NCBI GenBank assembly: GCA_001275005.1
Contig: JWZX01002904.1
Span: 59,603-79,602, forward strand
Source: Chrysochromulina tobinii
Taxonomy: Eukaryota
Direction of reading: 5' to 3'
DNA: 20,000 nt
A program made the position numbers and the translations under genes. This document shows, piece after piece, positions 1 to 17,110 of the stretch; the stretch's first letter is position 1; each line of letters starts with the position of its first letter. Below the pieces are notes generated by a model that searched no databases, was not told the DNA's origin, and saw only the letters and a list, made by a program, of their open reading frames with translations.

Positions 1-1
1 C

Positions 2-214
2 CTCTCATGGTTTCCAAAGTACCCGCTCGATCAGCTGCCGTGGAGCATTGTGGCTGCACCGACCGAGCCGCTGCTGAAGCCGACACGCAAGGTCGTGCCA
101 CCCGTCGCAGGCGTGGATATCAGCCCGATCATCTGGGTGAGTATCCTCAGCTTCATTAGCGAGATCCTGATCGGCCCGCAGGGCCTACTCACCATCATGC
201 AGAAGCGCGGCTGA
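2..214 (+). CDS. CCB3: 3' part of CCB3 (YGGT family; heme c_i assembly factor for cytochrome b6f); 5' end outside the window
   Basis: Not in the ORF track. Frame +2 reads LSWFPKYPLDQLPWSIVAAPTEPLLKPTRKVVPPVAGVDISPIIWVSILSFISEILIGPQGLLTIMQKRG*, with TGA at 212-214. This contains the YGGT core (SW.P...PTEP.L...R...PP..GVD..P) and the CCB3-typical tail E.L.GPQGLL. Confidence 0.88.
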   Translation, partial: LSWFPKYPLDQLPWSIVAAPTEPLLKPTRKVVPPVAGVDISPIIWVSILSFISEILIGPQGLLTIMQKRG

Positions 215-507
215 GAGCATCAGGCGGTCTCGAAAGAGGTGAGTCATGCGAATGAGGGACCGCACGACGAGGGTGATTGTGCGATGTGCCCATCGGATCA
301 GCACAGCGCATATGCCTCTCTTGATTCCATGTGCCATGCACACGCCACACACGCACGGATGGCACTTATGCTATAGTACTTTACAACGGACAGCCGTATT
401 ATACGCCGGTCTGAAACTGTATTTTGATTACGAAGTTTCTCGATCAACATGCGCGTTGCATCTATAATCCTTTCGTCGCCGCTCTGTGCGACCGTGTCCA
501 CGTCAAT

Positions 508-3500
508 CTAATCATAAGGCGCGTCTACTGGTGGAGGTGGTTGAGCCACCGGCAGCGTAGGCAGCGTCGGCGGCATGCGATGCTCCACAGGCTGTGCCGG
601 CGCATACGCGCTCGCTTCGTAACCGCGAAGCGCCATCGGCGACGCACCAGCGCCGTACGCGGGTGGCTGCATCTGCTGCCCGGTGCCATAGACGCCCTGT
701 GACGTGGCGCCGCCGTACGCGGGTGGCTGCATCTGCTGCCCGGCGCCATAGACGCCCTGTGACGTGGCGCCGCCGTACGCGGGCGGCTGCATCTGCTGCC
801 CGGCGCCATAGACGCCCTGTGACGTGGCGCCGCCGTACGCGGGTGGCTGCATCTGCTGCCCGGCGCCATAGACGCCCTGTGACGCGGCAGGGAGATCTGC
901 ACTCGCCACAAGGGGGGCGGGGGCGGCCGGGGGGGCAGTCTCGAGGCAGCCCTCGACGACCTCCCGGAGCACTTTGCGCATGTCGCCGGTCGTCTTGGCA
1001 ATGATCGCCTCCACAAGCGAGGTTTGGTATTGCGAGTGGTACTGCGTTGCGATCCCGGAGAGGTCGCGCCCAAAGCGCGCGCCCACGACGCTTACGAGCG
1101 TCTCGTCCTTCTTGACGAGATGGACGAGACCGAAGGCTAGGAGCTCGGGCGTCTTGGCCACGCCATGGAAGGCCGCATGCAGCTTGCGCGCATAGTACGT
1201 CTCGGTCGGGGTAAGGAGCAGCCGCACGGCGCGCGAGAGCGGCCCGCGCAGGTGAGTGCCCACCTCATCGAGGATGTCGCATTCGTACCGTCTTCGATAG
1301 TCTCGCGCGAGGTCGGCGAGCGCAATGCGCCCGAGACCAGCGAGCAGCGGGAAGAGGCGTGTCTTGAGCAAGTCCGACTGGCCTGGAGGCACCTTGTCCA
1401 GCGCGCGGAAGACGTCGTGCACGATCTGCGTGCCGCCAATGCCGGCGCCGCGCGCGGCCTCATCGGCGCGCTCGAGGAGCACGAGCAGCAGCGGCAGCGC
1501 CGACTCGTGTGCGCCAAGACGGCGCTCTTCGGGCGTATCGAGCTGCCGGCGCAGCACACCGAGCAGCTCGACACGCTCAGTCCGACGCCACTCCTCCTGC
1601 AGCTCGAGGAGGGACGAGGGCAGGCTGGTGCAAAGCAGCTCGAGGATTGAGGTCGTCGCCGCCGCCTTCACGTCCTTCTTCGAGCTCGAGCTCGCCTCGA
1701 GCGCCGCCTTGAGCGTGCGCATGTCGAGCTCGGGTTTCGTCAGGAGGAGCGCCGTCTTGAGCGTATGCATGTCGTGCTCGGGTTTCGTCAGGAGGAGCAG
1801 CCCTTCGAGCTCCGAGCGCTTCCCGATCAGCTCGCTCAGCTCGCGCGCGTACGTGCGCGAGTACGCCCGGCGCATCAGCTGCAGCTCGGCCACCGACTTA
1901 CCCCGGAGTAGCGCGAGGATCTTGCCTTGGTCCTTCTTGCCGAGGGCCTCTTGCATGCGGCGCGCGTCTTCCTCGGCGCGCCGCTCCGCCCCTTCGGCCG
2001 CTGGCCGCTCGTCGTACCAGCGCGCGCCGGGCACTGGCGCGGGGACGACGTTCGGCGTCATCATTGGCGCGCTCGTAATGGCTGCGAAGGCACGTGCGCC
2101 AGGTCCGCTGCCGCTGCTGGCGCTGCTGGCGCTGCTGCTGCTCACGCGCAGTTCGATCGTCTGCGGCTCAGCGAGCCGCCCGGCAAGGGGAGCCGCCACG
2201 GTCACACGCATGGGCGGCTCGTTGGGCGCTTGGATGAGGTACGTCTCACCCACGTAGATGGCACCCCGAAGAACGCACCCGTTGATGCCGCCCATGGCCC
2301 CTATACCGTACCCGCCGTACCCGCCGTCGCCCGCGGAGCCAGCGCCGCCAGCGCCCGTGTCGCCCTCCGCGATGACGACCTGCGACATCCTCTCATGGCG
2401 CAGCTGGACGCGCACCGCGATCGGGTCACCGCGGGGGTTGATCGAAGCGGCCGCGAGGGCCACGACCCGCAGGTCGCGCGTGCATCGTCGCAGCTCGAGT
2501 GGGAGCTCTTCGTTCATCCCGAGCGGCGGGATGAAGCTCGCGCTCGCTGGCTCGGCAGGCCCAAGACCGTCGGCCATCAGTGGCACGAGAGGCGGCGGCG
2601 CGGACGCGTAGCCCCCGTAGCCCCCAGCGGCCGGCGGTGCTGCGTACGCGAGGTGCACGCGATGCGGGGCGCCCGGCTGCAGCTGGCGCTCATCGAGGCG
2701 CGCGCGGCCGCTCGCGTCTAGGAAGCCCGACGCGACGATGGCGCTCGGAGGCGGCGGCGGCACGTAGCCTCCCACCGAGTAGCCGTAACCACCGACGTTG
2801 AGGGGGTCCTCACGCGCGATGACGAATCCGAGCCCGGGCGGCGGCGGCAGGCCTCGTGCCCATTCGGCCACACTCAGCGACGGGCGCAGCGCGACAATCC
2901 CCTCGCCCTGCGCGCCGCCGAAGCCGCCGCCGCCGCCGTAACCGCCGTAACCGCCGCCGCCGCCGCCGCCGCCGCCGTAGCCCCCCTGCGCCGCGCGGGC
3001 CTTGTCGCGCGCCATCGGTATCTCGACGTCGACGCGCTTGGTGTAGGGCACGACGAGGGTCTTGGTGCTCGAGGCCCAGCCGTTACTCGGCTCCGTCACG
3101 ATGGTGATCTCGTCGCCCTGGAAGATGGCGTGCTCGCCCGCCTTGTCGCCCACCTCGGTCGGGGCAGCACCCTTGCCTTTGCGCAGCGCGAGAAGCATCT
3201 GGCCACTCGACTTGCGCAGAATCTTGAACGGGAGCTCGTCGAGCACCTCCTCGAAGGAGCTCGGCTGAAGATCGTCGCCGTCGCCAGAGCTCCGGTACTG
3301 CGCCGGCTTCTCCGGGCCGAGCCATCGCAGCCGCAGCCCCGCCTCTGGCCCACGCTCGTGCAACACCACCTTGACCAACGTGTTCGGCTCGTTGGCAAAG
3401 AAGCGCAAAGAGGTGCTCACGATGGCGCCTTCGCGCTCGGCGCCACGCACCTCGACGATGTACTCGTCGTGCATCACGAACCCGCCAGCCGATGGAGTCC

Positions 3501-6500
3501 GGACGGGCTCCTCGACGATCGCCTTGCCGCTCGCGACCGTGGTCGCCTCGATCAGCGGCTTCGCACCGGGCGCCATGCGGGCGGAGCGGATCGCGTACGG
3601 GATGGACGGCGGCAGTACCTTGTCCTTGATCGCGCTCTCGAAGCGTACGGTCAGGCTCGCCTCTCGGAGCGTCCCTCGCAACGGCACCTCGAGGGGCGCC
3701 GCGCCTACCTTGAAGGTCGTGCTCGCCTCGAAGAGTGCGCCGCCGAGGGTGTGCACCGTATACTCCTCCCCTATGAACAGGTGGCCCACGTGCGGCAGAG
3801 GCGCCGTACTGGGGGCGGCGAGCGTGCCAGAGAGCACCGGGAGGTCGAGGCGCGTGTGGCGCACCTCGTACCGGATGTTGTCGAGCGTCGCGAGGCCAGC
3901 TGCCCAGTGCTTACCGCCCGTGTTCGCGAGCGGCGCCACCTCAACACGCAGCGTGATGGCCTGGGAGAGCGGCGCGAGCAGCATGGACACCATGGCCATG
4001 TGGTTGGGGTCTTCCTTCGAGGCGCTCGGCGCGGCCTTGGTCTCGAAGATGCAAGGCTGGCCTGCCGGGTCAAACTGCTCGACGCTCGCTGCCTTGCCTG
4101 GGGTGGCGCCCGGCGCGGCCACCCGCAACTCGAAGCGCTCGGAGGCGGGCAGCGCCGTCTCGAGCATGCCATAGGATCGATGCAGCTCGGCTTGGTGCTT
4201 GGAGACGGCCTGCTTGGCCTGAAAGCGGCGCAGGTCGTGCACAAGCTGACCGAACTCGGTGAGCTCGAGGGTGCCAGATTGGTCGGCGTCGTACCGCTGC
4301 ATGATCTCCACGATCTCGCGCGACGAGGCGCTCAGCTTGAGGTCACTCAGTGCGGTGCTCAGTTCGTCAAGGTCGATGGAGCCACTTGAGTCCTTGTCGT
4401 ACGTACGGAAGATGGTGAGCACGTCATCGGTCACGTGCCGACCCACCTTGCCGCCCTGCTGCGGACGGAAGTCGACGCGCGAGTGGCCCTGCCCGCCACG
4501 GTACGTCAGGTACAAGTTGCGCCGCGGCACGCCAAGAGAGACGAGATGCTCCAGACACGCAGTCGCGCGCTTCTTCGCGAGTAGGTCCATGACGGCATTG
4601 CAGTCCTCGGTCGCGCGCAGCTTGAAGAGCGCGGCGAGGTCCTCGTCGGCACGCCCCTCTTCGGGGTAAGTCGTCTGCCCATGCACCTCGAGCGACGCCT
4701 CCGGGTGCCGCAGCATGATCGAGGCGATGCCTTCGAGCGTGGCGAGGTTCCTCAGCTGCTTCTCCTGGTTGAGATGTTCGATGCTCCACGATTGCGCGAG
4801 CCCCCGCGACGAGCTCTTGGTCGCGTCTTCGCTCGCGCCATTGAAGACGACTCGGTACTCCTCGGCCTGCAGGAAGGTCGCCACAGCCGCCGCGGCAGAG
4901 CTCGCCTGATGCTCCCGCCGCTTGTCGTGCGCCTTGTGCTTCTCGGCCATATCGGCGAGGGCCATGGGGACGAAGTGGACGCGCGACGCGCCCGTGCGCG
5001 CGCGGGCCGCTCCGGCCGCCCCGGCCGTGCCGGTGGCGGCGTCCGTGCGGCAGGTGGCAAGCAGGCGCTCGGGCGGGATGCCTCGCCGGATGAGGGCATC
5101 GACGCATGCATTCGCGCGGTTGGTAGCGAGCTGCTCGCAGAGCTCGCGCGCGTCCTCCCGAGCGCGACGCCGGTAGTATTGGGCAAGGCGCTCGGGAGCT
5201 TCACGCACGAGAGCCGTCTCGCCGTCCACCTGTAGCGCAACCTCGGGGGATTCGAGCAGCAACCTCGCGAGCTCATCGAGCAGCTCGTGATTGCGCTGCC
5301 GTTTCGTGTCGTCCCCTTCGTAGTCGAGGCTCCATGAATGCTCGATGGCGCCCAGGGACTCATCGGCCGCGGAGTGGAACGAGAGCACCTCGGACTTGAT
5401 GCGCGTGCGGATGCGTGTGTCCGCCTCGACCAGCTGCTGCTGCGCAGTGAGCGCTGCGCGTGCCGTGTGGCGGAGCATCCCTCGCTGCACTTCGCGCTTG
5501 AGGCCGAGGTGGTAGAGCTGGTACGGTACTGCCGCCGGTAGCTCCATGTTCGCGTACCAAGCATTCGTCGGCCACGCCCAGTACACTTTGACGTCGCACA
5601 TGGCGCGCTCGAGGCGCACGCCCACTTCGACCGCTTGCGCACTCTCGACGAAGCGAACGCTCGCGGGCTTCGTCACGGAGGTCGCGAGCACGCGCAGCTC
5701 GTAGAGCACGCCAGGCTCGAGCTTGTCCGCATGGAAGACGGCGCCCGAACGCCCCGGCCGCGTCGGGTGCAGCGTGCCCTCGTATACGGGCGCAGCAGCC
5801 AGATCGCGATCAGGGGCGGCCTTGGCGGCTGCCGGCGAGGGCGACATGTTGAGCGGCTGCATGCCCGCTATGGCGCCAGCCGCCTCGCGAGCGGCGGGCT
5901 GGCCTGCGGCGGGCTGATCTGCGGCGGGCTGGGCCGCGCCCTCGGCCGGCGTCTCGATGACGCGGTACACGTGGAAGGGGATCGAGCCGGGCAGTTGCAG
6001 CGCCTCAGTCCAATCACCCTTGCCGTAGCGCGCGTCAGCCGCCGTCACCTTGATTGTTCCGCGTCGCACGCGCGGCGCGATCAGCTGCTCGACGCACACG
6101 TCCTCGGGCTTGCTCTCGGCCTTGATGGAGAAGGAGCGGTAGACGCACTGGAAGTGCGAGGCCCCCGTCTCGGAACGAGGATCGTTCACACGCACCGCCC
6201 GCCGCTCGTCGAGCACGAGGTCCGGCTCGGACGGTAGCCGCACCGGCCGCACCTGAAGCACGTACGTCTCGTCCACATGGAGCGCCGTGTTGGGCGGCAG
6301 AGGGCACTGGACCTTTTGGCCGGCGGCCTGCGTCACTCCCTCGAAGACGAGGGCGAGCTCGGGCACAGGGCCCTCGTCGAGCGGCGCGTACGGGCGCATC
6401 GAGCGCGGGAGGAACTCGACGCGCAGGTGCTTGCTATTGCCGTTGAACGACGGGAGGAGCCGTTCGCGCCGAATGCCCAGCTGCACGAGCGTGCCAATGC

Positions 6501-9500
6501 ATGCCTTTGCACGCATCTCCGCGAGCTTGTCCATGATCGGCCCCACCTGCTTGATGCGGTCCATGCTCAGGTACGAGGCGAGTTGGCGCGGCGCCGCGTC
6601 CGCGCCGCCCGTCTCGCCACGTACCTCGAGATAAACCTCGGGGAACTTTTGGAGGATCGCGGCCACCCCCTGAAGCGTCTGCAGATTGAGTTGAGTGCGC
6701 CGCCGGTCCAGGTGCTGCACCGACCACGCCTGCTGCACATCGGCGAGCTGCTCGCCCGCGCCGTTGAACTCGACCACGTTGCGCTCGGTGAAGCTGCGCA
6801 TCTCGCTCAGGGCGGCGCGCAGCCCGCCGTCCGATTGGCGCTGGTGCAGCAGCCGGAAAGGCACGCCCGCGGGCAGCGGGCTGTACCGGTCTTTGATGCT
6901 CGAGGCGTGTGGAATGAAGTCCACCTTCATGGCCTCGCCCTGTGGGTGTGACGTCACCCACATGCGTGCTGCCTCGACGCCGCGCCGCACGAGCGCTTCG
7001 AAGCACGCGTCGCCTCGCTGGCGGGCGAGCAAGTCGAGGCACTTGGTCACGTCGTCCGTCGGGTGCAGCCGGAAGTAGTTGCCGAGCGCCTCCGCGGAGG
7101 TCTGCTTGGTGGTCGAGCCAGCAATCTCGAGTGCAATCTCCTTGTGCTGCTTCATGATGGCGGCGATCGTGTCGAGGATCTTGCCATTCTCGTCACGCTT
7201 CTTCGGCTCGAGATGCTCGATGTTCCACGCCTGCGCGACGCCGAGCGGCGAGCTCTGGGTCAGGGGGTCGGCGGCGCCATTGAAGAAGATGTCGTGGTCG
7301 ATCAGGTAGCGCGTAATCTGCTCGCGAGCTCGCGCGGCCGACTGGACGGTGACGTCATTCAGTTGCTCCGAGGCGAGGAACAGCTCGACTCGTCGCGAGG
7401 GGCGGTGGATCGGGATTTTGAGAGTCGTGCTGGTGCCGCCGAAGACGGTGAGCTCGGCGACGGCCTCTTCAGTACGAATCGTGGCGGCCACGTGTACCGT
7501 GTAGACCTCGTGCACGTAGAACAGGTCGGTGCCCTTCAGGAGCAGCTCGCCATCGAAGACCGTCTCGCGGAGCACTTCGAGGTTGAGCTTCTTGTGCCGG
7601 ATGGAGATGGGCACGCCGCTCGCGACCGCGAGTGCACTCGACCAGTGACCAGTCTCCGCCCGCGCGTTGACGAGCTTGATGAGCACGTCGCCCGTTTGGC
7701 GCTCGACCGACACGCGCACCTCCTGCGACCGAGTCGTCATCAACTCTGTGTTGGCCGCGACCTTGAACTCGACCACGGTCGGCTGGAAGCCGGTGCCGCT
7801 CAGCCCAAGCAGTGCGCTTGGCACGAACTCGGTCTGTGGCTTCCCCGTGCGCGCGCGGCAGACCGAGAGACGCTTCTCGAGCGTCTTATTGCGCGCCACG
7901 AGCGCACGCACGCAGGCCTCGGAGCGGTTGCGTGCGAGATGCATCGAGAGCAGCTGCGCGTCCTCCTTTGGCCGCCGCTTGTAGTAGCGAGCGAGCGCAT
8001 CGGGCGCCTCGTCCAGACGGGCACTCTCGCCATGAACCTCGAGCGCAACGCCCGGGTGCTCGCCCAAGATACGAGCGATCTCGTCGAGGAGATTGTGGTT
8101 CTGCGCCTTGAGCGTCTGGTCGGGATGGTCGACCGACCATGCTTCCTCGATGGCACGCAGCCCCTTGTCGGCCGCGCTCGCGAACCGGATCGCCCGGCTC
8201 TTGAGCAGAGCGCCGAGCTGGGCACTCGCCCGATCGAGCTGCACGCGCGACGAGCAGCCGAGCTGCACCACGTACTTCTCATCCACATAGAGCTGTGAAC
8301 GGTCGAGCTCGCGCCTGCATAAGCGCCCCGTCTCGCCCTCGACGAGAAACTCGGACACGACCTCCCCGAGCCCCGCGTGCACGAGCACGATGTCGAAGAG
8401 AGGCGGCAGCGGCAGCGCAGCTGACCAGTGGCCCTCGCGCGACGCACGCTCGCTCGCCTCGACGACGAGGGTCACGGGCGCCGTCTGCCGGCGCAGCGAC
8501 AGCACGATGGGCTGGTCGACATCGTCGCGCCCCATGGTGAACGCGTCCGTGAGCTCGCTGGCGACGATCTGGCGCGTCTGGGGCACGCGAAGCCGGTACG
8601 CTTGGCCCACGATGAGGCCGAACGTATTGAGTGGCGTGGGAGTGTGCCCGCTCGCCTGGCCCATTGAGGCGACAGTGCCCACGTGGTCGAGCACGTGGTA
8701 GCTCACCGCCACCGGCAAGGGCAGCTTGCGCGACCAATGGCCCTCCTCAACCGCGTGGCGGCAGCGCACGGTCAACGCGCCTGCGGCGGCGCGGCGCACC
8801 GGCAGCCTGATCTCGAGGATATCCAGATCGTGCACCTGGTCGGGGTCGATGGTGAACTCGCATAAGTTCGGATCGGTGCCTGGCCCCGCGAAGGCTTCGA
8901 AGACGTACGTCTGGCCCACGATCAGTCGCTCCTTGTGGGGAAGGGGCACGAGGACCTCGGGCTCGGCCTTCGTCGTCATGCCTGCATGCAGCACGGTGCC
9001 CCCCGCCTTGAGGCGCACCTCGAAGGGGATGCCAGCAGGTAGCCGCGCCATCTCTCGCTGCACCGGCTGCCCGGCCAAACTTGGGGCCGAGGACGTTCCC
9101 TCGGGGATGAAGTCCACTGTGCTCGCGCCGTCGCGCCCACGGAACGAGACGTACAGCTGGCTGGCCGGCACGCCCGAGTGCACGAGCGCCTCAAGGCACG
9201 CCTGTGCGCGGTGCATGGCGAGCTTGTCCATGAGCTCCTGCACGTCGTGCTTCGGGTGCTTGCCAAAGTGGTCTGCTAGTCGCCGAGGTGCGGACTCGGC
9301 GGCGCCCGTCTTGCCGTGCACCTCGATTCGCAGATTGGGGTACGCCTTGAGGATCCCTGCAACGCCCGAGATCGTCGCGAGGTTGGCGGCGCGCACCTGC
9401 GGGTCCGAGTGGTGGATGCTCCAAGCTTGCGTGATCTTGACGACCTGGCTGTCGGCCGCGCCGTCAAAGATGATGTCGTGCTTCTCGAGGAATGCCCGTA

Positions 9501-12500
9501 TACGTGCATACGCCTCCTGCGCTTGTGCGCTGCGATAGACGTTCGCATCTGCCGAAGAGAGGTAGCAACGCACCATGCGCGTCGCCCAGGTGACTCGCAT
9601 CACCACGTCCTGCACGCCCGCGCGCAGCAGCAGCGCGTTCGGGTCGGGCGCAAAGTAGCTGCCCCCTTCGAGGTCGAGTGTGTAATGCTCCTGGCAATAG
9701 AGCTGCCGAGACGGCTGGCTGCCCAAGAGCACGCACTTGCTCTCGTCGCCGCTGCTCACGACGCCCTCAACGATGCGCGTGTCGCTCGCCGTATGGCGCA
9801 CGACGACGCGCAGCCCGGGCGGCACGCGCAGAAAGTGGGACCAGTGAGCCGGCTCGGGGTGCGCCGAGCGGAAGAGGACATTCAAATCGCCCGTCGCCTT
9901 CTCCAGCGCCATCGAGACCTCTTGACTCGCTCCCGTGAGCGCGGGCGACGCGACGGTGAAGTCGATGCGCTTGGGCGTGAGCCCCGACAGGGGGTCGCCC
10001 AAGCGAGAGCTGCGTGGGGTCTCGAGGCGGAATTCGACCGTGTCGACGGCCTCGCCCCCGCGGAAGGTGGCGCGCAACCGATGGGACCCCACGCCCACCT
10101 TGCGCAGCGCCTCGACGCACGCGCTCGCGCGGTTGCGTGCCAGGTGGTCCAGGAGCCGCGGCAGATCGCGCATCTTGTAGTAGGCTGCAAGCGCGTCTAC
10201 GGAGTGCCGGCGGCCCGTCTGCACATGGACTTCGAGGTGAAGCGCCGGGAACCCGTTGAGCACCTCCACGATCGTGTCGATGACGGCGCAGTTGGCTTCA
10301 ACCTTGAGCGCGTCGTCGCGGAGGTCGAGCGACCACGAGGTAGCGACGTCCGGCACAGCCTGTGGGCCCGCCTCGAGGAACTCAACGGTCCGACCATGAA
10401 GCTTCTTTCGCAGCATCTCGGTCGCCTCGGCCACGGACTGGCGCATTTGATAGCCCACCTCCATGTAATAGGCCTCCTCGACGAAGAGTCGGTGCTTGGC
10501 AGGCAGCTCCTGCCGCACTGTGTGCGATGGCTGGCGCAGAATCGTCTCCTGGTGTACGACCGCGCCCGACTTTTTGTGCACGATGCGGTACTCGAAGGGT
10601 GCGGGCAGCTTGAGCGACGACGCCCAGTGGGCCGAATGGGCATGCACGGTGGTGAAGATGGCCGTCACGTCACCGAGCGCGCGGTGCACATCGACGCGCA
10701 CGGTCTGGTCGCCAAAGGAGTCGTTCTTGAGGATAGTGAACTCGCCGATCGCGTTGCTCACCACGCGCTTGTTCTGCTCGCTCGAAACCTCGACTGTGTA
10801 CGAGCGGCCCACGTACATCTGCGCGCCCTTTTCGAGCGTGAATCGCCCCTGAGCGTCCGTGGTGCCGCTGAACTTCAAACGCCCCGTACGCGGCTTGGGG
10901 AAGATGGAGAAGTGGATGCGCGGCATCGGCAGGTTCGCAAGGGGCGACTGGGTGTCCTTGAGCGGATCGCGCAGCAAGAGGTGCACACGCCCCGCTGAGG
11001 GCCCGATCGGCACCTGGATCTGCAGAGGCTCCTTCCCCGCCGAGATTGTGATCTCCGTCGTGCGTGCCGAAACATGGCTCGACCCCTCAAGGTCACCCAC
11101 CTCGAAGACGTACGTTTGGCCCACGTACAGCGCATCCGCACCGGGCAGAAGGGCGGCGCCTTCGCGTGTGACGCCCGAGGACGTCTCGAGACCCAGGGCC
11201 TTGTGCTTGGCGACGATGGTGATCGCCTCGTCAATGCGGATACGGTCGACGGGCGTCGGCTCCGCGTCGTCCTGGTCCAGGCGCAGCGTGACGCGCACGT
11301 CGCGCGACGTGCGCGACACCGGCACCTCGATGATCTGCTGCTCGACGAACTCGACGATGAACTCGCGCGTCGTGCCGAGCATCTCGTCCGTCTCGAGCAC
11401 CTCGAGCGTGTACGTCTCGCCAACGTAGAGCATCTGCTTCAGCGAGAAGCGGAGCAGCGCCGCGCCGCCCTTGTTCGCGGGCTCCGTCGGGGCGATGGCC
11501 AAGATCTCCCGCTCAGGCACAACGACGCCAAGCTCCTTGTGACGGATTCGGATGCGCGCGCGGCCGGGCATCGGCAGCGGCGCCGACCAGTGCGACGACT
11601 TTGAGCGCACGTCGACGAGCACGAGGCTCACGTCGCCCATCGGCCGCTCGACAGTGAGCTCGAGGGCTTCGTCATGCTCGGGCATCTTGAACTCCACTTT
11701 GGCGTGAGGGACTCCGAGCGACGGCATCGCCACCGTCTCGGCGATGTACCGTTCACCAGGGTAGAGGGCGTCCGGCTCTTCGATGCGCACCGAGACGCTC
11801 GAGGGGCGATGGACCGCCACGTAGCTCGCGCCGCCTCGGGGATCACGCCCAATGTACACACGGTGCTCGCGGGCCGCCTCGGCCGCGCCGATGCTCGTGT
11901 AGTCCTCAGTGTTCTCGGCGCTCTTACGCCACGCGGTGGTGCGCGCGCTGAAGGTCACGGCGTCGGCTGCACCGCCCACGAGCACGCTTCCAAACGTGCG
12001 GCTCGGGGGCACGCCGAGTCGTTGGAGCGCGCCCAGCACGGCGTTCACCCGTGCGCGCGCCAGCTGCTCGAAAGCGCTCTGTGCTCCGCTCGAGCCAACG
12101 GCCGTGCCGCTCGCCGTGCCGCCGTTGGCCGCGCCGCTGCTCACGCGCGCTGAGGAGGAGGAGGAGGCGAAGTGCTCAAGAAGGCGCTGTGGCGCTGCGC
12201 CGCTGGACTGGGTCTCGACCGTGACGCCCACCTCGACGTGGAGCATGGGGTAGCGGAGCATGGTCGACGCGACCGCCTCGAGGTTCGCGCGGTTCTGCAA
12301 ACGGATCGCCGTGTCGGTGTGGTCGAGCGTCCAGGAGAGTGCGACCGACTGCAGCGATCGCTCGGCTGGCGAGTGGAACGTGAGAGCCCCTGGCCGGCTT
12401 TGGGCCTTGAGCAGTTGAGTGACGGCGAGAGAGAGCGAGGAGGCATCGTGCAGCGAGCGTGGGATGAAGTCGGTGCGAATGTGGCCGCCACGACCCTTGA

Positions 12501-15500
12501 AAGACACGAAAAGCCGCTCAGCCGAGACGCCGCGCAGGATGAGTGCCTGCCGGCAAGCTTCGGCACGCAGCTCGGCGAGACGGTCCATGAGCCGTTGAAC
12601 GTCTTTGGTCCGATCGAGCCCAAAGTGCTTCGCGAGTCCGGGCGGCGCGTGGTCGGCGGGTCCCGTCTCGCCATGGACCTCGAGGGCGATCTTGTCGAAT
12701 TCCTTCAGGATAGTCGCGATGCCGTCGATCGTCTTCCAGTTCTGCGCCTTGTACCGCGTGTCCAGGTGGTTGATCGACCACGCCTGCTCGACCGTCGGCA
12801 GCCCTGCCTCGCCCGCACCATTGAAGTAGATGTCGTTGCCGTCGGCCAGGAAGGCCGCGACGCGCTTCAGGGCCGAGCTCGCTTGCTGCTCGCCGTCGGA
12901 GCGCCTCTGCTCGCTCTCCTCGACGTCCTTTTCAAACGTCTGCAGCTCGAGCTCGCCCGCCTTGCCGGCCGCCACGAGGGTCATCGTCTCCTTGTGGCGC
13001 ACATTGACAGTGATGCCATACGGGAGCGGCAGCTGCTGCTTCGATTTGATGGTGACGGTGGCGCAATAGAAGCGCCGACGGAGCGGCAAGTTGATCTGCT
13101 GCGTCGACTCTTCCGCTACGAGTTGCACCGTGAGCGGCTGGATAGAGGCTGATTCGAGGACGCGCAGCGTGTACGTGTGGCCGAAGAAGATGTCGGCCAT
13201 GCCCATGGCGTAGCCGTCGGGCGTGATCGACTTGGAGATGGGCAGGTGCAGGTCGGTCGCGTTGCGCGCCCACGCGAGGTTCTGGGAAGCGATCAGCCGC
13301 GAGTTGTGCAGCACCTCGAGCTGCTGCGGCGGCAGCGAGAGCACGCGCGACCAGTGATTCGGCCTCGGAAGCAGCGGGAAGAGGCGCGCCGTCACGTCGG
13401 AGACGCGGCGTGAGCAGACGAGCTCTACCGGCGCCTGCATGCCGTCGATCACGTCGAAGGTCGCCATCGCGCCACCTACCCCAAAGTTCGACTCGACGGT
13501 GGCCGTGTACTGTTCGCCCACGTAGAAGGCGTCGGGCACGTGCAGCAAGCAGCGCACGGCCAAGTCCGACTCGGTCGTGGTCGTCTCGGCGACCACGTGG
13601 CGAAGGGCCGTGTGCATCACGCGCACGCGCAGGCCCACTGGCAGCGCTTGCGCCGGCTGCGCGCCGTGCTGGGCACTCCCGCCGGCCAGCGCCTCGCCCG
13701 GCCGCTGCACCGACGAGCGCAGCACGACAACGATAGCAGGGACGCACGCTCGGCTGACGAGGAGCGTGGCGCTCGCGGTCTCTGCGCTCGAGCCCACCTG
13801 CAGTTCCGCCGTCGAGCGGAGCACCTGGGGCGTGGGCTGCAGCTCGAGGGTATACCGCTGAAACGCGAGGATCTCCACCTCCGGAGACGCGAGGGTCACG
13901 TGCGCCGTCACGTCGCCACGCGGCTGCGGCTCGCCGCCGCCGAGCTTGATGAGCTTCTTGCCAACGACCAGCCGAGAGTCGTGCGCGAGCCGCACGTAAA
14001 TGGACAGCTCGGTCGGCAGAGGCAGTCCCTCAGACCAGTGCGAGCTGCCGGCCTTGTCCGAGAGGAGATGCACATCGGCTGATGCGAGCTCACGGACGAG
14101 ATCGAGCTTGACGACCGTGGTGACTGCCTCCTTGCCTGCGCTCGAGGGCGCGCCAGGGGAGGCAGGGAGGGTCTCCTTACCGGTCTCCTTGCGTGAGGTG
14201 CTCCGAGCCTCCTTACGCGCCTCCTGCTTGCCCTGTTCCTCGCCCACGACGAAGGTCTTGGGCGCGGCCATCCGGAAGCCGCGACCCTTCGGTACCGAGA
14301 ACGTGTACTGCTCGCCCACGTACAAGGCGCCCTGGTTGACGAACCACGCGTCGCACTCGACCTCCATGCCGGAGAGGCTCGTGCGTCCCTCGAGTACAAT
14401 GCACCCGAGCCCCGTGTGGCTCACTGTGAACGGCACACCCACGGGCAGCGGCCGATCGTCTGCAGAGCACAGCAGCAGGCGCACGTCGCCGACTGCGCGA
14501 TCGATGGCGAGGACTACTTCTTGCGAGTCGCCCCCGTAGTGCACGCCGCCGCCGCTTGCGCCGCCGCCGCCTTCAACGAGGCTCGGCACTACGGAAGCGG
14601 TGGAGGCGCCCGTGACCACAAACTCGCAACGCGCGGCCAAGACGTGGCGCCCACTGAGTGACTGGAGGATGTACGTCTCACCCGTGTACAGCAGCTCCGG
14701 CGGGATCGAGACGCGGTTCGTTGGGCCTGCCGAGCCCTCATGCACGAGCGTGCCCGACGCCTTGTGCACCAGTTTGAATTGGACTTCGCGCGGGAGTGGC
14801 AGCCCAGCCGCCCAGTGATCCGTACTCGCCTCGAGAGCCTTGAAGGCGATGCCGAGCCCGCACGTCGAGCGGCGCACTTGCAACGTCACCTCCTGCGCCT
14901 CGGGGGAGCGCACGTAAAAGTCGCAGCTGCTCGCCTGCAGTCCAAAGGCGGCGAGCACCTTGAGCACGTACGTTTCGCCAACGAAGAGGTAGCCGCTTGG
15001 CAGCGAGACGCGCGGCGCCACGTCGCGTTGCCTGGTCGCGCCCGTAGCCACGACGCGCTCCGTGGCCTTGTGACGAACCTCGTACACGAGCCCCTCGGGC
15101 AGCTCGATCGAGGCGGCCCGGTAGGCGACGCTGCTGCTGCTGCCCGACTTGGCCTCCGGCACGGGCGGCGGCTGCGCACGGAAGATGAGCGACACCACGG
15201 CCGTCGCACGCTCGACGGGCAGCTGCACCTGCACCACCTGCCCGTCCGCCACCACAAAGTCGGTCGAAGTTGGAATGATGGCGCCGTTGGCGGAGGCCGA
15301 GAGCTCATACGTCTCCCCAACGAGAAGCGTGTCTTCGCCGTGGAGCTCCGCGCGGTCGGCCCCGACTGGAAAGGCAGGCATCACGCGCTGGTCGAGCCCG
15401 CGGTGCTTGAGCTGCAGCATCACGCTCGTCGGGACGGGCAGGTCCGACTCGCCCGGGAGCAGGTGCACCATCACGCGCCCGACACGGCGCGCGAGCACCA

Positions 15501-16005
15501 CGCTCACCACGTGCCCCTCGGAGGTGACGACAAAGTCCTTTTTGGCCATCTGTAGCTGGACGGTTGCAGGCACCTCAATCGTGTACGTCTCCCCCACGAA
15601 CAGGCTCTGATGCACGCCGCGCTCGCCCGCAGCGTCGCCGCTGCTGCTGCTGAGCACACACGTGTCGTGCCGGTCGGAGCGCGTCGCGCCGTGCGCAACT
15701 GGCACCCCAAGTCGCTTGTGGTACACGTTGAATGCGATGCCGTCGGGCATCGGGAGGGCAGAGGACCAGTGGCCGGTCCCCGCCTTGGCATACCGGCACG
15801 CGACAGTCACCTCGCCCACGCAGCGGTGCACACGGCACGCGACCTCCACGTGGCGGCTCATCGGCGTGAAGGTCGTCTCGCCCGCCTGTGATCGGCACGC
15901 CTCCGTCTTGTCGACGACGACCTCGTACTTCTCGCCCGTGATGAACGACATCGTCTTGGCAGTGAACCGCGCTCGCGAGTGCGTATCGGTCGCGCCGGTC
16001 GCCAC
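508..16005 (-). CDS. Giant multidomain protein (5165 aa): repeated putative beta-sandwich units, 9 OmpA-C-like domains, EF-hand pair, annexin-like core. True N-terminus probably lies upstream.
   Basis: 15.5-kb stop-free frame with protein-level internal repeats and recognisable EF-hand and annexin motifs. The listed start is a GTG in the middle of a repeat unit. The first in-frame ATG is at 15951. No introns are needed to explain the frame. Confidence 0.93.
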   Translation of the reverse strand: MATGATDTHSRARFTAKTMSFITGEKYEVVVDKTEACRSQAGETTFTPMSRHVEVACRVHRCVGEVTVACRYAKAGTGHWSSALPMPDGIAFNVYHKRLGVPVAHGATRSDRHDTCVLSSSSGDAAGERGVHQSLFVGETYTIEVPATVQLQMAKKDFVVTSEGHVVSVVLARRVGRVMVHLLPGESDLPVPTSVMLQLKHRGLDQRVMPAFPVGADRAELHGEDTLLVGETYELSASANGAIIPTSTDFVVADGQVVQVQLPVERATAVVSLIFRAQPPPVPEAKSGSSSSVAYRAASIELPEGLVYEVRHKATERVVATGATRQRDVAPRVSLPSGYLFVGETYVLKVLAAFGLQASSCDFYVRSPEAQEVTLQVRRSTCGLGIAFKALEASTDHWAAGLPLPREVQFKLVHKASGTLVHEGSAGPTNRVSIPPELLYTGETYILQSLSGRHVLAARCEFVVTGASTASVVPSLVEGGGGASGGGVHYGGDSQEVVLAIDRAVGDVRLLLCSADDRPLPVGVPFTVSHTGLGCIVLEGRTSLSGMEVECDAWFVNQGALYVGEQYTFSVPKGRGFRMAAPKTFVVGEEQGKQEARKEARSTSRKETGKETLPASPGAPSSAGKEAVTTVVKLDLVRELASADVHLLSDKAGSSHWSEGLPLPTELSIYVRLAHDSRLVVGKKLIKLGGGEPQPRGDVTAHVTLASPEVEILAFQRYTLELQPTPQVLRSTAELQVGSSAETASATLLVSRACVPAIVVVLRSSVQRPGEALAGGSAQHGAQPAQALPVGLRVRVMHTALRHVVAETTTTESDLAVRCLLHVPDAFYVGEQYTATVESNFGVGGAMATFDVIDGMQAPVELVCSRRVSDVTARLFPLLPRPNHWSRVLSLPPQQLEVLHNSRLIASQNLAWARNATDLHLPISKSITPDGYAMGMADIFFGHTYTLRVLESASIQPLTVQLVAEESTQQINLPLRRRFYCATVTIKSKQQLPLPYGITVNVRHKETMTLVAAGKAGELELQTFEKDVEESEQRRSDGEQQASSALKRVAAFLADGNDIYFNGAGEAGLPTVEQAWSINHLDTRYKAQNWKTIDGIATILKEFDKIALEVHGETGPADHAPPGLAKHFGLDRTKDVQRLMDRLAELRAEACRQALILRGVSAERLFVSFKGRGGHIRTDFIPRSLHDASSLSLAVTQLLKAQSRPGALTFHSPAERSLQSVALSWTLDHTDTAIRLQNRANLEAVASTMLRYPMLHVEVGVTVETQSSGAAPQRLLEHFASSSSSARVSSGAANGGTASGTAVGSSGAQSAFEQLARARVNAVLGALQRLGVPPSRTFGSVLVGGAADAVTFSARTTAWRKSAENTEDYTSIGAAEAAREHRVYIGRDPRGGASYVAVHRPSSVSVRIEEPDALYPGERYIAETVAMPSLGVPHAKVEFKMPEHDEALELTVERPMGDVSLVLVDVRSKSSHWSAPLPMPGRARIRIRHKELGVVVPEREILAIAPTEPANKGGAALLRFSLKQMLYVGETYTLEVLETDEMLGTTREFIVEFVEQQIIEVPVSRTSRDVRVTLRLDQDDAEPTPVDRIRIDEAITIVAKHKALGLETSSGVTREGAALLPGADALYVGQTYVFEVGDLEGSSHVSARTTEITISAGKEPLQIQVPIGPSAGRVHLLLRDPLKDTQSPLANLPMPRIHFSIFPKPRTGRLKFSGTTDAQGRFTLEKGAQMYVGRSYTVEVSSEQNKRVVSNAIGEFTILKNDSFGDQTVRVDVHRALGDVTAIFTTVHAHSAHWASSLKLPAPFEYRIVHKKSGAVVHQETILRQPSHTVRQELPAKHRLFVEEAYYMEVGYQMRQSVAEATEMLRKKLHGRTVEFLEAGPQAVPDVATSWSLDLRDDALKVEANCAVIDTIVEVLNGFPALHLEVHVQTGRRHSVDALAAYYKMRDLPRLLDHLARNRASACVEALRKVGVGSHRLRATFRGGEAVDTVEFRLETPRSSRLGDPLSGLTPKRIDFTVASPALTGASQEVSMALEKATGDLNVLFRSAHPEPAHWSHFLRVPPGLRVVVRHTASDTRIVEGVVSSGDESKCVLLGSQPSRQLYCQEHYTLDLEGGSYFAPDPNALLLRAGVQDVVMRVTWATRMVRCYLSSADANVYRSAQAQEAYARIRAFLEKHDIIFDGAADSQVVKITQAWSIHHSDPQVRAANLATISGVAGILKAYPNLRIEVHGKTGAAESAPRRLADHFGKHPKHDVQELMDKLAMHRAQACLEALVHSGVPASQLYVSFRGRDGASTVDFIPEGTSSAPSLAGQPVQREMARLPAGIPFEVRLKAGGTVLHAGMTTKAEPEVLVPLPHKERLIVGQTYVFEAFAGPGTDPNLCEFTIDPDQVHDLDILEIRLPVRRAAAGALTVRCRHAVEEGHWSRKLPLPVAVSYHVLDHVGTVASMGQASGHTPTPLNTFGLIVGQAYRLRVPQTRQIVASELTDAFTMGRDDVDQPIVLSLRRQTAPVTLVVEASERASREGHWSAALPLPPLFDIVLVHAGLGEVVSEFLVEGETGRLCRRELDRSQLYVDEKYVVQLGCSSRVQLDRASAQLGALLKSRAIRFASAADKGLRAIEEAWSVDHPDQTLKAQNHNLLDEIARILGEHPGVALEVHGESARLDEAPDALARYYKRRPKEDAQLLSMHLARNRSEACVRALVARNKTLEKRLSVCRARTGKPQTEFVPSALLGLSGTGFQPTVVEFKVAANTELMTTRSQEVRVSVERQTGDVLIKLVNARAETGHWSSALAVASGVPISIRHKKLNLEVLRETVFDGELLLKGTDLFYVHEVYTVHVAATIRTEEAVAELTVFGGTSTTLKIPIHRPSRRVELFLASEQLNDVTVQSAARAREQITRYLIDHDIFFNGAADPLTQSSPLGVAQAWNIEHLEPKKRDENGKILDTIAAIMKQHKEIALEIAGSTTKQTSAEALGNYFRLHPTDDVTKCLDLLARQRGDACFEALVRRGVEAARMWVTSHPQGEAMKVDFIPHASSIKDRYSPLPAGVPFRLLHQRQSDGGLRAALSEMRSFTERNVVEFNGAGEQLADVQQAWSVQHLDRRRTQLNLQTLQGVAAILQKFPEVYLEVRGETGGADAAPRQLASYLSMDRIKQVGPIMDKLAEMRAKACIGTLVQLGIRRERLLPSFNGNSKHLRVEFLPRSMRPYAPLDEGPVPELALVFEGVTQAAGQKVQCPLPPNTALHVDETYVLQVRPVRLPSEPDLVLDERRAVRVNDPRSETGASHFQCVYRSFSIKAESKPEDVCVEQLIAPRVRRGTIKVTAADARYGKGDWTEALQLPGSIPFHVYRVIETPAEGAAQPAADQPAAGQPAAREAAGAIAGMQPLNMSPSPAAAKAAPDRDLAAAPVYEGTLHPTRPGRSGAVFHADKLEPGVLYELRVLATSVTKPASVRFVESAQAVEVGVRLERAMCDVKVYWAWPTNAWYANMELPAAVPYQLYHLGLKREVQRGMLRHTARAALTAQQQLVEADTRIRTRIKSEVLSFHSAADESLGAIEHSWSLDYEGDDTKRQRNHELLDELARLLLESPEVALQVDGETALVREAPERLAQYYRRRAREDARELCEQLATNRANACVDALIRRGIPPERLLATCRTDAATGTAGAAGAARARTGASRVHFVPMALADMAEKHKAHDKRREHQASSAAAAVATFLQAEEYRVVFNGASEDATKSSSRGLAQSWSIEHLNQEKQLRNLATLEGIASIMLRHPEASLEVHGQTTYPEEGRADEDLAALFKLRATEDCNAVMDLLAKKRATACLEHLVSLGVPRRNLYLTYRGGQGHSRVDFRPQQGGKVGRHVTDDVLTIFRTYDKDSSGSIDLDELSTALSDLKLSASSREIVEIMQRYDADQSGTLELTEFGQLVHDLRRFQAKQAVSKHQAELHRSYGMLETALPASERFELRVAAPGATPGKAASVEQFDPAGQPCIFETKAAPSASKEDPNHMAMVSMLLAPLSQAITLRVEVAPLANTGGKHWAAGLATLDNIRYEVRHTRLDLPVLSGTLAAPSTAPLPHVGHLFIGEEYTVHTLGGALFEASTTFKVGAAPLEVPLRGTLREASLTVRFESAIKDKVLPPSIPYAIRSARMAPGAKPLIEATTVASGKAIVEEPVRTPSAGGFVMHDEYIVEVRGAEREGAIVSTSLRFFANEPNTLVKVVLHERGPEAGLRLRWLGPEKPAQYRSSGDGDDLQPSSFEEVLDELPFKILRKSSGQMLLALRKGKGAAPTEVGDKAGEHAIFQGDEITIVTEPSNGWASSTKTLVVPYTKRVDVEIPMARDKARAAQGGYGGGGGGGGGYGGYGGGGGFGGAQGEGIVALRPSLSVAEWARGLPPPPGLGFVIAREDPLNVGGYGYSVGGYVPPPPPSAIVASGFLDASGRARLDERQLQPGAPHRVHLAYAAPPAAGGYGGYASAPPPLVPLMADGLGPAEPASASFIPPLGMNEELPLELRRCTRDLRVVALAAASINPRGDPIAVRVQLRHERMSQVVIAEGDTGAGGAGSAGDGGYGGYGIGAMGGINGCVLRGAIYVGETYLIQAPNEPPMRVTVAAPLAGRLAEPQTIELRVSSSSASSASSGSGPGARAFAAITSAPMMTPNVVPAPVPGARWYDERPAAEGAERRAEEDARRMQEALGKKDQGKILALLRGKSVAELQLMRRAYSRTYARELSELIGKRSELEGLLLLTKPEHDMHTLKTALLLTKPELDMRTLKAALEASSSSKKDVKAAATTSILELLCTSLPSSLLELQEEWRRTERVELLGVLRRQLDTPEERRLGAHESALPLLLVLLERADEAARGAGIGGTQIVHDVFRALDKVPPGQSDLLKTRLFPLLAGLGRIALADLARDYRRRYECDILDEVGTHLRGPLSRAVRLLLTPTETYYARKLHAAFHGVAKTPELLAFGLVHLVKKDETLVSVVGARFGRDLSGIATQYHSQYQTSLVEAIIAKTTGDMRKVLREVVEGCLETAPPAAPAPLVASADLPAASQGVYGAGQQMQPPAYGGATSQGVYGAGQQMQPPAYGGATSQGVYGAGQQMQPPAYGGATSQGVYGTGQQMQPPAYGAGASPMALRGYEASAYAPAQPVEHRMPPTLPTLPVAQPPPPVDAPYD
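651..884. repeat. 60-bp tandem repeat, about 3.9 near-identical copies, encoding (GATSQGVYGAGQQMQPPAYG)n in the giant ORF
   Basis: Unit cgccgtacgcgggtggctgcatctgctgcccggcgccatagacgccctgtgacgtggcgc starts at 651, 711, 771 and 831, with only isolated substitutions. Confidence 0.97.
950..1980 (-). other. Annexin-like core domain (about 4 degenerate annexin repeats) within the giant ORF
   Basis: AEEDARRMQEALG..KILALLRGKSVAELQLMRRAYSRTYARELSELI, and LARDYRRRYECDILDEVGTHLRGPLSRAVRLLLTPTETYYARKLHAAFHG...DETLVSVVGARFGRDLSGIATQYHSQYQTSLVEAIIAKTTGDMRKVL. These match the annexin repeat pattern (DA..L..A..G; TL..I...R...DL..I...Y...Y..SL...I...TSGD..K.L). Confidence 0.8.
1699..1798. repeat. 48-bp tandem duplication (2 copies) inside the annexin-like region
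   Basis: gagcgccgccttgagcgtgcgcatgtcgagctcgggtttcgtcaggag (1699-1746) versus gagcgccgtcttgagcgtatgcatgtcgtgctcgggtttcgtcaggag (1747-1794). The protein reads LLLTKPEHDMHTLKTA / LLLTKPELDMRTLKAA. Confidence 0.93.
4234..4428 (-). other. EF-hand pair (calcium-binding) within the giant ORF
   Basis: Two canonical 12-residue loops, DKDSSGSIDLDE (4363-4398) and DADQSGTLELTE (4255-4290), with D1, D3, S5, G6 and E12 and calmodulin-like flanking helices (IFRTY..., IMQRY...F). Confidence 0.92.
4462..4890 (-). other. OmpA-C-like domain 9
   Basis: VVFNGA..QSWSIEH..RNLATLEGIASIMLRHPEASLEVHGQT..LAKKRATACLEHLVSLGVPRRNL..RVDF. Confidence 0.7.
4965..5427 (-). other. OmpA-C-like domain 8
   Basis: LSFHSAA..HSWSLDY..RNHELLDELARLLLESPEVALQVDGET..LATNRANACVDALIRRGIPPERL..RVHF. 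Confidence 0.72.
6405..6822 (-). other. OmpA-C-like domain 7
   Basis: VEFNGA..QAWSVQH..LNLQTLQGVAAILQKFPEVYLEVRGET..LAEMRAKACIGTLVQLGIRRERL..RVEF. Confidence 0.72.
6910..7330 (-). other. OmpA-C-like domain 6
   Basis: IFFNGA..QAWNIEH..ENGKILDTIAAIMKQHKEIALEIAGST..LARQRGDACFEALVRRGVEAARM..KVDF. Confidence 0.7.
7820..8232 (-). other. OmpA-C-like domain 5
   Basis: IRFASAA..EAWSVDH..QNHNLLDEIARILGEHPGVALEVHGES..LARNRSEACVRALV..RL..TEF. Confidence 0.7.
9103..9520 (-). other. OmpA-C-like domain 4
   Basis: IIFDGA..QAWSIHH..ANLATISGVAGILKAYPNLRIEVHGKT..LAMHRAQACLEALVHSGVPASQL..TVDF. Confidence 0.72.
10025..10430 (-). other. OmpA-C-like domain 3
   Basis: VEFLEA..TSWSLDL..ANCAVIDTIVEVLNGFPALHLEVHVQT..LARNRASACVEALRKVGVGSHRL..TVEF. 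Confidence 0.65.
11945..12430 (-). other. OmpA-C-like domain 2 (with a Ser/Gly-rich insertion)
   Basis: LTFHS..LSWTLDH..QNRANLEAVASTMLRYPMLHVEVGVT..LARARVNAVLGALQRLGVPPSR..AVTF. Confidence 0.62.
12460..12871 (-). other. OmpA-C-like domain 1
   Basis: IYFNGA..QAWSINH..QNWKTIDGIATILKEFDKIALEVHGET..LAELRAEACRQALILRGVSAERL..RTDF. Confidence 0.72.
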
Positions 16006-16636
16006 GACGCACCTGATCGTGATTGATGCAGCACGCGCAACGGCACGCCTGTGGGAAGCGGGAGCTCGCTTGCCCAGTACGAGGTGCCGGCATGCACGGA
16101 GCGCAGCACCACGTCTACCGACGCGAAGGCACGAGCAACGCGCAGCACCATCGCCGCCGTCTCGCCCACAGACGACGTGAATCCAACGGTCGCCTCATCG
16201 AGCAAGTCGGACTTTGGCACACGGAGCCAAAAGTTCTCGCCCACGTACAGGTTGGCTGCCTGGCCGTCGACGGAGCCCGAGCCGTTGGCAGCGGTTCTGG
16301 CGTGCACGACGACCTTGGACTCACAGTGCACGATTTCAAAGCCGATGCGCTCGGGGAGCGGCAGCGAGCGCGCCCAGTGCTGCGTGTCCACGAGCGCCAG
16401 CTCGAGTTCGAAGCTCGGACCACCTCGACAACCACCTCGAAGCCACGCGCACTCGAGGCGCCGCCATCGACGGTGAAGCTCGCCTCGCCTGCCGAGATGC
16501 CCGGGCCGCCGGGCGTGCGCGCTACGTAGGTCTCACCTACGAAGAGCGTGCCGCGCCGCTTGATGACTGACTTGCCCACCTGGTCCGTGACGCCGCTCGC
16601 CACTTCCTTATTGAGCAACTTGTGTACGATCGTCAC
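16006..16636 (-). pseudogene. Frameshifted 5' continuation of the giant ORF (about 2.3 further repeat units)
   Basis: The frame of ORF 16115..16636 gives IVHKLLNKEVASGVT..LFVGETY..FTV..VVEVVRA. After a shift at ~16411 the next frame gives ELELALVDTQHWARSLPLP..LYVGENF..YWASELPLPTGVPLRVLHQ. After a shift at ~16020 it joins IRCVVATGAT of the main ORF. The motifs are the same as in the main array. Confidence 0.82.
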
Positions 16637-16639
16637 GGA

Positions 16640-17110
16640 CTTGCGAGCGCTCCCGTCGCGGGATCCACCTTTGCTGGGTGGTACTCATGGTGCACACGGC
16701 CAGGCTGTAGTCGCAGCCGGCGGGTGCGACGGGGTTGCGGTACACCACGTAGTGTATGCGTGCGTTGTCGTCCTTCTCGCCCGGCAGCGGGCTCGGCCGC
16801 GAGAGCACGAGCGCCTCGCCGGGCCCCAGCGACCGCACGCGCGACACGACCGTCCCGTGGAAGTCGTGCACGAATGGTGGGTCCCCAGTCTGCGCCTTGG
16901 CGGCTCGGTTGAGGAGATCCGCGCTGCGCTCGAAGCACAGGTACGCGCGCGCAATCTCGGTCGCCGCGCTGTAAATCTTCGCGAGCTGCACCAGCTTCTC
17001 GCACACGATCTTTGCCCGCGGCGGCGCGGCCCACCCAAAAGGCGCACACGAGCGGCTCGCGGTAGAGCACGCCCTCCAAGACCCCCAGGCAGTGCGACAC
17101 GAGCCACACG
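16640..17110 (-). pseudogene. Degenerate fragment of an unidentified protein gene
   Basis: Protein-like text is split over two frames: KIVCEKLVQLAKIYSAATEIARAYLCFERSADLLNRA..VRSLGPGEALVL..HYVVYR..YSLAVC, then EYHPAKVDPATG in another frame. It is loosely reminiscent of a 'C-N-T-G..EYHP' segment of giant protist proteins, but the identity is uncertain. Confidence 0.4.

Follow-up and report, generated by a model that had tools for sequence, protein, structure and literature searches.

A giant Chrysochromulina tobinii protein joining OmpA-C-like domains, a beta-sandwich rod, EF-hands and an annexin-like end: a candidate Ca2+-regulated intracellular tether

We analyzed a 20,000-nucleotide stretch of the Chrysochromulina tobinii genome (contig JWZX01002904.1 of assembly GCA_001275005.1, positions 59,603 to 79,602; hereafter the window, numbered from its first letter). 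On its minus strand we found a gene for a giant protein that joins OmpA-C-like domains, a rod of beta-sandwich domains, EF-hands and an annexin-like C-terminus. Judging from its sequence, we propose that the protein may serve as an intracellular tether or spacer between membrane and cytoskeleton, regulated by Ca2+, and we give this reading a probability of roughly 0.5. A first-pass annotation, made from the letters of the window alone, had pointed to most of these modules, and we refer to it where our results bear on it.

Results

The giant frame and its expression

Between positions 508 and 16,194 the minus strand carries a stop-free frame of 5,228 codons, while the longest frame in 200 order-2 Markov simulated sequences was 1,120 codons. 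Thus, the frame of more than 5,000 residues claimed by the first-pass annotation is real. Its GC content at third codon positions (GC3) is 0.85, and the antisense in-register frame was rejected as coding, since it holds 33 stops. Four runs, each of a different study, gave RNA contigs that tile the frame. One of these contigs covers 5912-16633 with no splice gap, and no introns were found in the RNA-checked part of the gene.

Part of the gene lies outside the window. A contig scan covering 34 of 64 parts of the metagenome data gave at least three related loci (L001, L002, and L003). L003 and the window agree in every letter over 6459-15960 and diverge beyond, whereas L002 is identical to the window from 15,850 to 18,511, and L001 equals L002. 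The RNA sides with L003: the variant letters of one run (X2) match it in 14 of 14 cases and L002 in none, and three of the four RNA contigs lack 2 nucleotides at 16,022 and part from the window sequence at 16,633, with a 30-letter loose end equal to L003. Therefore, the window switches copies within 15,850-15,960, a zone that matches both. Judged by these identities, the 5′ end of the window is a chimera, with the intact gene up to 15,960 and a decayed partial copy beyond (15961..16633, minus strand). The decayed copy, as seen in L001 and L002, has 42 non-synonymous and 23 synonymous changes, frameshifting indels of 16, 2, 1, and 15 nucleotides, and larger deletions. The contig of another RNA run (X6) agrees with the window version over 13,698-16,633, which counts against a pure artefact; here too, two copies may have been collapsed into one, or the allele may be a genuine recombinant. 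We discarded an intron at 16,633, as the AG acceptor is absent and L003 runs on unbroken there.

L003 keeps the frame open from 6593 to the end of the locus, which adds about 1,340 N-terminal codons (from 6674 onward). RNA checks the first 30 of the 981 letters of this extension beyond 16,633. The coding sequence in the window (508..15960, minus strand), defined by the open frame, the L003 identity and the RNA contigs, holds the C-terminal ~5,150 of ~6,490 residues. Counted from the first Met of L003, the full protein has 6,488 residues by arithmetic, assuming that the added part is intron-free, and the apparent start at 15,951 is an internal Met of the intact frame. The first-pass annotation was right about a giant protein and gave too small a size; its single uninterrupted frame over 508-16636 stands as a stop-free frame over 508-16194, with decayed copy from 15,961 up. 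The assembly chimera that it had named as a ground for doubt is true of the 5′ end only, and correcting it lengthens the gene rather than refuting it.

The decayed copy in L002 ends beside CCCTAA telomere-like repeats (L002 11981-12023), and a CCCTAACCC run lies at window 17560-17568. This region with telomere-like repeats is possibly fragment-capturing or subtelomeric.

Nine OmpA-C-like units

With a profile made from the repeats of the protein itself, we found nine OmpA-like units in the window, all on the minus strand: unit 1 (12442..12879), unit 2, which is divergent (11926..12429), unit 3 (10006..10431), unit 4 (9085..9519), unit 5 (7801..8235), unit 6 (6892..7335), unit 7 (6388..6819), unit 8 (4948..5430), and unit 9 (4444..4902). 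The Pfam OmpA family was found in four of the seven pieces into which the frame was divided, above its cut-off in three, and the unit profile matched YiaD at E 1.5e-6. We modelled one beta unit together with unit 4 and its flanks from 8 sequences (predicted local distance difference test, pLDDT, 71; predicted template modelling score, pTM, 0.44), and unit 4 superimposed on OmpA-C (5wtl) with a VIA Z of 11.8 and a root-mean-square deviation of 2.0 A over 108 aligned residues. Profile count and fold model thus agree with the nine modules of the first-pass annotation.

The residues that bind the bacterial cell wall are only half retained. In AbOmpA, diaminopimelate binding needs both Asp271 and Arg286, according to the part of the source consulted (PMC12108004). 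By alignment to YiaD, Pal, OprF, and MotB, the Asp position falls right after the G-x-T motif. The Asp is absent from 9/9 window units and, adding five long homologues, from 49/49 units with a residue there, which is mostly Gly. The Arg is kept in 9/9 window units and in 48/48 of the larger set. An insertion of ~13-20 residues follows directly after the Asp position, and the units share a conserved Trp-bearing N-terminal segment. In 153 further proteins, the Asp is present in 23 of 198 units and the Arg in all 192 of 192.

The beta-sandwich rod

Most of the rest of the chain is a rod in which CnaB/prealbumin-like beta-sandwich units of ~100 residues follow one another, about 25 of them in the window and several split by inserts (2143..15825, minus strand), with the motifs HW..LPLP and LYVGETY. 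The own-repeat profile gave 25 beta-unit matches in the window, some partial, close to the "about 27" repeats counted before. The N-terminal extension adds at least seven, so that the whole protein has about 30-35. In the model, the first beta unit (residues 1-106) matched CnaB/prealbumin-type domains with a middling Z of 8.7-9.2, and the top Foldseek rows were pilins (SpaA, SpaD), SdrD, CnaB2, and OmpA-C. A rough test for Lys-Asn isopeptide bonds, in an alignment whose register partly cut the last strand, found no column in which Asn is conserved; the best has it in 3 of 31 rows. We saw no sortase motif or signal in the rod protein.

To locate the OmpA units relative to the rod, we used a profile of 79 clean beta units and scored the sequence after removing the OmpA inserts. 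Units 1 and 2 lie together in a single beta unit, which they interrupt after profile position 50: positions 21-50 are matched before them and 51-102 after. Excision left one spanning beta match with a higher score for units 1-2 and for units 3 and 5, which are late inserts. For unit 4, the model places one beta strand before the insert and six after it, and the flanks of the remaining OmpA units read like those of unit 4. From the profile for units 1, 2, 3, and 5, and from the flanks and the strand order of one model for the others, we infer that the OmpA units are nested in loops of the beta domains, which would give a rod with side knobs.

EF-hands, annexin-like end and termini

Between OmpA unit 9 and the C-terminal region lies a pair of EF-hands (4225..4434, minus strand; Pfam EF-hand_1 2.3e-11) with two 12-residue loops of the D-x-D-x-S-G...E type, and Pfam and loop pattern agree with the two canonical EF-hands reported at first. 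The annexin-like core (940..2022, minus strand) reached Pfam Annexin 1.7e-11, with 44 bits against a cut-off of 25 in two stretches, and matched 75 PDB sequences, annexin VI being the best (3.4e-11), which bears out the C-terminal annexin-like domain. All four annexin repeats were assigned by eye. The core lacks intact KGxGT calcium sites; P0002 and P0003, two of the homologues described below, read KGLRT in this region. In the part of the source consulted, the consensus of the annexin type II Ca2+ site is KGxGT-(38)-D/E (PMC12249911). Since KGxGT is lost and the EF loops are canonical, the EF-hands would be a likelier source of Ca2+ control than the annexin core. The C-terminal tail, rich in Gly, Tyr, Gln, and Pro, is encoded by four 60-nucleotide tandem repeats (651..888, minus strand) and is absent from P0002, P0003, and P0005.

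At the other end, L003 encodes a basic tail rich in Arg, Pro, and Ser and a SelW/Rdx-like domain. The matches of this domain are weak (TIGR02174 E 2.9e-4, 21 bits against a cut-off of 34; Pfam Rdx E 0.087; Atlas Rdx clusters at 0.88), its motif is CxxS (CFNS) and not CxxU or CxxC, and its model had a pLDDT of 54.5 with no Foldseek match below 1e-3. It matched no PDB sequence. Residues 1-100 of P0002 and P0003 hold four RPxSA motifs in the basic tail, and L003 has one RPQSS; motifs of this type may point to a link with ciliary or microtubule proteins.

By hydropathy alone, there is no hydrophobic N-terminus or signal peptide in L003, P0002, or P0003 (maximum 11-residue hydropathy 0.04-0.17) and no clear membrane segment in the giant protein. 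It has about 1% Cys and few N-glycosylation sequons.

Continuity of the 3′ part

As L003 ends at window 6459, we looked at the 3′ part in DNA contigs. Those of four runs tile 1-7000 with no joints, and none of the contigs listed spans the whole of it. Depth approximately doubles at 3745-4900, with variant letters and loose ends, and further partial copies of the segment with the EF-hands and OmpA unit 9 probably lie elsewhere in the genome. The link from EF-hands to annexin is therefore drawn from the window, the DNA tiling and the homologues that keep OmpA, EF-hand, and annexin in one chain.

Homologues and the wider subfamily

Such homologues are P0002 (6,549 residues) and P0003 (6,550 residues), near-identical to each other and counted as one lineage, with ~33-37% identity to the giant protein over long stretches; P0005 (6,097 residues), which automatic annotation labels EF-hand plus OmpA-like; and the fragment P0013. 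The OmpA units and the annexin end are present together in P0013 and P0028. By pattern count, the EF-hands of the long homologues range from 2 to 18, and the Ser/Gly loop of unit 2 holds EF-hands in P0004 and P0006. We built a tree of 71 units: those of the window and of nine long relatives that cover more than 110 profile positions, together with 11 from other architectures. In it, OmpA units 1 and 2 cluster according to their place in the chain, whichever homologue they come from, and with starred support; the others are less clearly positional, and the backbone is weak.

Beyond these giants, the OmpA-unit profile retrieved 574 clusters at E 0.001 and 205 at 1e-10. We scanned 55 proteins of this subfamily with Pfam (52 of the 57 long ones without beta units, and three with them), and 28 carried another family: EF-hand in eight, C2 in six, NHL in five, ankyrin in three, and ion channel in two. 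Leucine-rich repeats (LRR) were also among the partners, and CH, PDZ, WW, TRAF-type zinc finger, ubiquitin, and annexin occurred once each. None of the five best rows per protein was a barrel or lipoprotein family. From these partners, the subfamily has the profile of an intracellular eukaryotic module. P0130 (2,545 residues) is a separate architecture with C2, OmpA-like domain, LRR, annexin, and ankyrin repeats, and P0120 and P0147 join the OmpA-like domain to ion-channel domains.

A single-protein scan with OmpA unit 1, which reaches close relatives only and neither dates the domain nor tells its source, gave 303 pattern matches in prokaryote genomes and 18 in viral contigs, none of them confirmed. 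We also considered Phaeocystis "OmpA/MotB" proteins as support and set them aside: among the rows listed in the part of the source consulted (PMC10861871), two find their best matches, at 92-96%, in Pseudoalteromonas, another contains an outer-membrane barrel domain, and a short "hypothetical" protein allows no judgement. On those rows, the OmpA proteins named in that haptophyte proteome appear mostly bacterial.

Neighbouring genes

The C-terminal part of a YGGT-family protein (window 2-214, plus strand; Pfam 5.8e-14) runs convergently towards the giant gene. Window 16634-18400, upstream of the decayed copy, is a mosaic of gene pieces, one of them a dynein heavy-chain N1 fragment (17565-18395, Pfam). 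At 16683 and 17522, RNA contigs have insertions and loose ends, as though the genes of origin were elsewhere. The true upstream neighbours of the intact gene are a TPT-family translocator and an FkbM-like methyltransferase (L003 3626-4804 and 5207-6394, both on the plus strand). In L002, 1-3315 (minus strand) holds a frame of 1,105 codons; it is repetitive, with beta-helix-like segments that recur along it, and has no Pfam match. The YGGT, TPT, and dynein neighbours, a GC content of about 67% and the intron-free RNA-checked gene likely fit a plastid-bearing eukaryote.

Discussion

At the functional level, we propose that 30-35 beta-sandwich domains form a long rod, and that nine OmpA-C-like domains stand out from the loops of this rod. 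The annexin-like C-terminus would dock on a membrane, possibly in a Ca2+-free manner as its sites are degenerate, and the basic Arg/Pro/Ser tail together with the SelW/Rdx-like domain would hold the other end. The rod would set the distance between the two; at 4-4.5 nm per domain, its length would be roughly 130-155 nm. Along it, the OmpA-like knobs with their invariant Arg may bind a protein or an anionic partner, and Ca2+ at the EF-hands, beside or inside the OmpA units, may alter this binding.

We place the protein inside the cell because it has no evident signal peptide and the partner modules of its OmpA-like domain are mostly cytosolic. The architecture is shared with the divergent P0002/P0003 and P0005, and this supports a tether. 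The scaffold or titin-like option of the first-pass annotation agrees with this proposal. Its Ca2+-regulated, membrane-tethered filament holds in part: the EF loops are canonical, but Ca2+-dependent membrane binding by an annexin without KGxGT is uncertain.

Several points weigh against a Ca2+-regulated tether. No actin- or tubulin-binding domain of known type was found in the giant protein, and the window protein has two EF-hands only. Neither KGxGT nor GxGT occurs in the annexin region of the window or of six relatives, so that, on sequence grounds, Ca2+-dependent lipid binding may have been lost. CnaB-type rods are best known in secreted surface proteins. In the insertion test, excision brought no gain for units 8-9 and no spanning match for units 4 and 6-7, and the pTM of 0.44 leaves the domain packing of the modelled segment unestablished. 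Finally, 20 of the 55 scanned subfamily proteins have no Pfam family at all and seven have only OmpA.

The same observations can be read in other ways. The protein could be a soluble or loosely anchored signalling scaffold whose rod spaces OmpA-like modules and EF-hands, with a Ca2+-blind annexin and no mechanical tether. The vanished annexin calcium motifs favor it, as does the shuffling of the OmpA-like domain among PDZ, WW, TRAF, ankyrin, and channel domains, but a conserved rod of at least 30 units in homologues of 6,100-6,550 residues seems excessive for such a role and suggests a function for length; we consider a scaffold doubtful. We see only a slim chance that the protein belongs to the haptonema or flagellar apparatus, as a Ca2+-binding link between microtubule bundle and membrane cisternae that serves rapid coiling. 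In the part of the source consulted, haptonema coiling is Ca2+-dependent and motor-independent, possibly with Ca2+-binding microtubule-associated proteins, and the microtubules stand in a ~100 nm circle ringed by cisternae (PMC6398456). The EF-hands, the membrane-type end, the basic N-terminal tail and a length scale similar to that of the haptonema fit this, but the protein has no recognised tubulin-binding domain.

The first-pass annotation also suggested a multivalent ligand-binding array, for instance one that senses wall fragments or bacterial prey. Such a sensor or trap for peptidoglycan, whether placed at the surface or facing the cytosol on damaged food vacuoles, could draw on the retained OmpA-C fold and Arg, on the Asp kept in some units of the wider family, and on a rod that resembles bacterial adhesin stalks. 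Against it stand the loss of the Asp throughout the window and long homologues, where AbOmpA needs the Asp–Arg pair, the insertion just after its position, the lack of an evident signal peptide and the mostly cytosolic partners. On these sequence features, wall sensing by the giant protein is unlikely. Export as an extracellular adhesin or a scale or coat protein seems improbable to us as well: tandem CnaB-type domains are typical of surface proteins, and some annexins are exported without a signal sequence, according to the part of the source consulted (PMC12249911), but the low Cys content, the few sequons and the canonical EF-hands argue otherwise, as do the cytosolic modules with which the OmpA-like domain is combined. 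Lastly, the multi-domain fusion might be an assembly artefact or an unexpressed frame, in view of the chimeric 5′ end, the 3′ part not bridged as a whole by any single independent contig among those listed, the doubled depth, and RNA libraries that may contain DNA. Against this, L003 matches exactly over 9.5 kilobases, RNA contigs of four studies tile the frame, DNA contigs tile the 3′ part without joints, and homologues keep the order in one polypeptide; an artefact is thus very improbable.

The giant protein is not a canonical OmpA-C protein, annexin or pilin. With OmpA-C/Pal/MotB (PF00691) it shares the fold, the G-x-T and L-x-x-x-R-A motifs and the invariant Arg, but the Asp is replaced, insertions follow, a Trp-bearing segment precedes, and nine copies sit in a eukaryotic rod with no barrel, lipoprotein signal or membrane helix. 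Its seven-strand tandem units of ~100 residues resemble the CnaB/prealbumin-like stalks of Gram-positive bacteria (SpaA, SpaD, SdrD B repeats), while it is eukaryotic, has no isopeptide Asn column and carries whole domains in its loops. The weak likeness of the N-terminal domain to SelW/SelT/SelH (Rdx) stays below curated cut-offs, with CxxS and a rod fusion setting it apart.

Titin, filamin, and spectraplakins are giant repeat rods acting as backbones or spacers. Scanned with Pfam, neither the window frame nor the N-terminal part showed an Ig/Fn3, filamin, spectrin, or CH domain, and the giant protein gave no match in sequence or domain to these rods or to the GSBP proteins of Spirostomum. 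By analogy, the giant protein most likely works like backbones of the titin, filamin, or GSBP type without belonging to them, since it has another repeat type, OmpA-like side domains and an annexin end. Spirostomum GSBP1/2 are likewise described, in the part of the source consulted, as very large repeat backbones or spacers (PMC9946354), and some of these giant proteins are under Ca2+ control. The C-terminal core resembles annexin VI/V, among annexins that include the alpha-giardins of Giardia. Annexin heads range from a few to more than 100 residues in the part of the source consulted (PMC12249911), whereas the "head" here is ~6,000 residues, and the KGxGT sites are absent.

In the open-access literature, which was the scope of our search, we found no description of this architecture or of the eukaryotic OmpA-like subfamily, in line with the first-pass annotation, which knew of no protein with this combination. 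As the automatic label of P0005 shows, databases already display the domains, which seem not to have been studied. It seems, then, that known folds and a known kind of job come together in an arrangement that is undescribed and conserved.

Conclusions

Technically, a decayed partial copy can cost a giant gene 1,340 codons in an assembly. For the OmpA-C family, our results point to an apparently undescribed eukaryotic branch, with 205 clusters at E 1e-10 or better, in which the peptidoglycan Asp is mostly lost and the domain is shuffled with calcium, membrane, and cytoskeletal modules. The giant protein is conserved and combines two folds that are best known in bacterial envelopes.

It is also a candidate for Ca2+-controlled, motor-free cell mechanics in an organism group whose haptonema coiling, according to the part of the source consulted, still lacks a molecular explanation (PMC6398456). 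As a long shot, OmpA-C might have turned into a general intracellular binding module in haptophyte-type algae, and the giant protein might be the Ca2+-responsive link between microtubules and cisternae that drives motor-free coiling of the haptonema.

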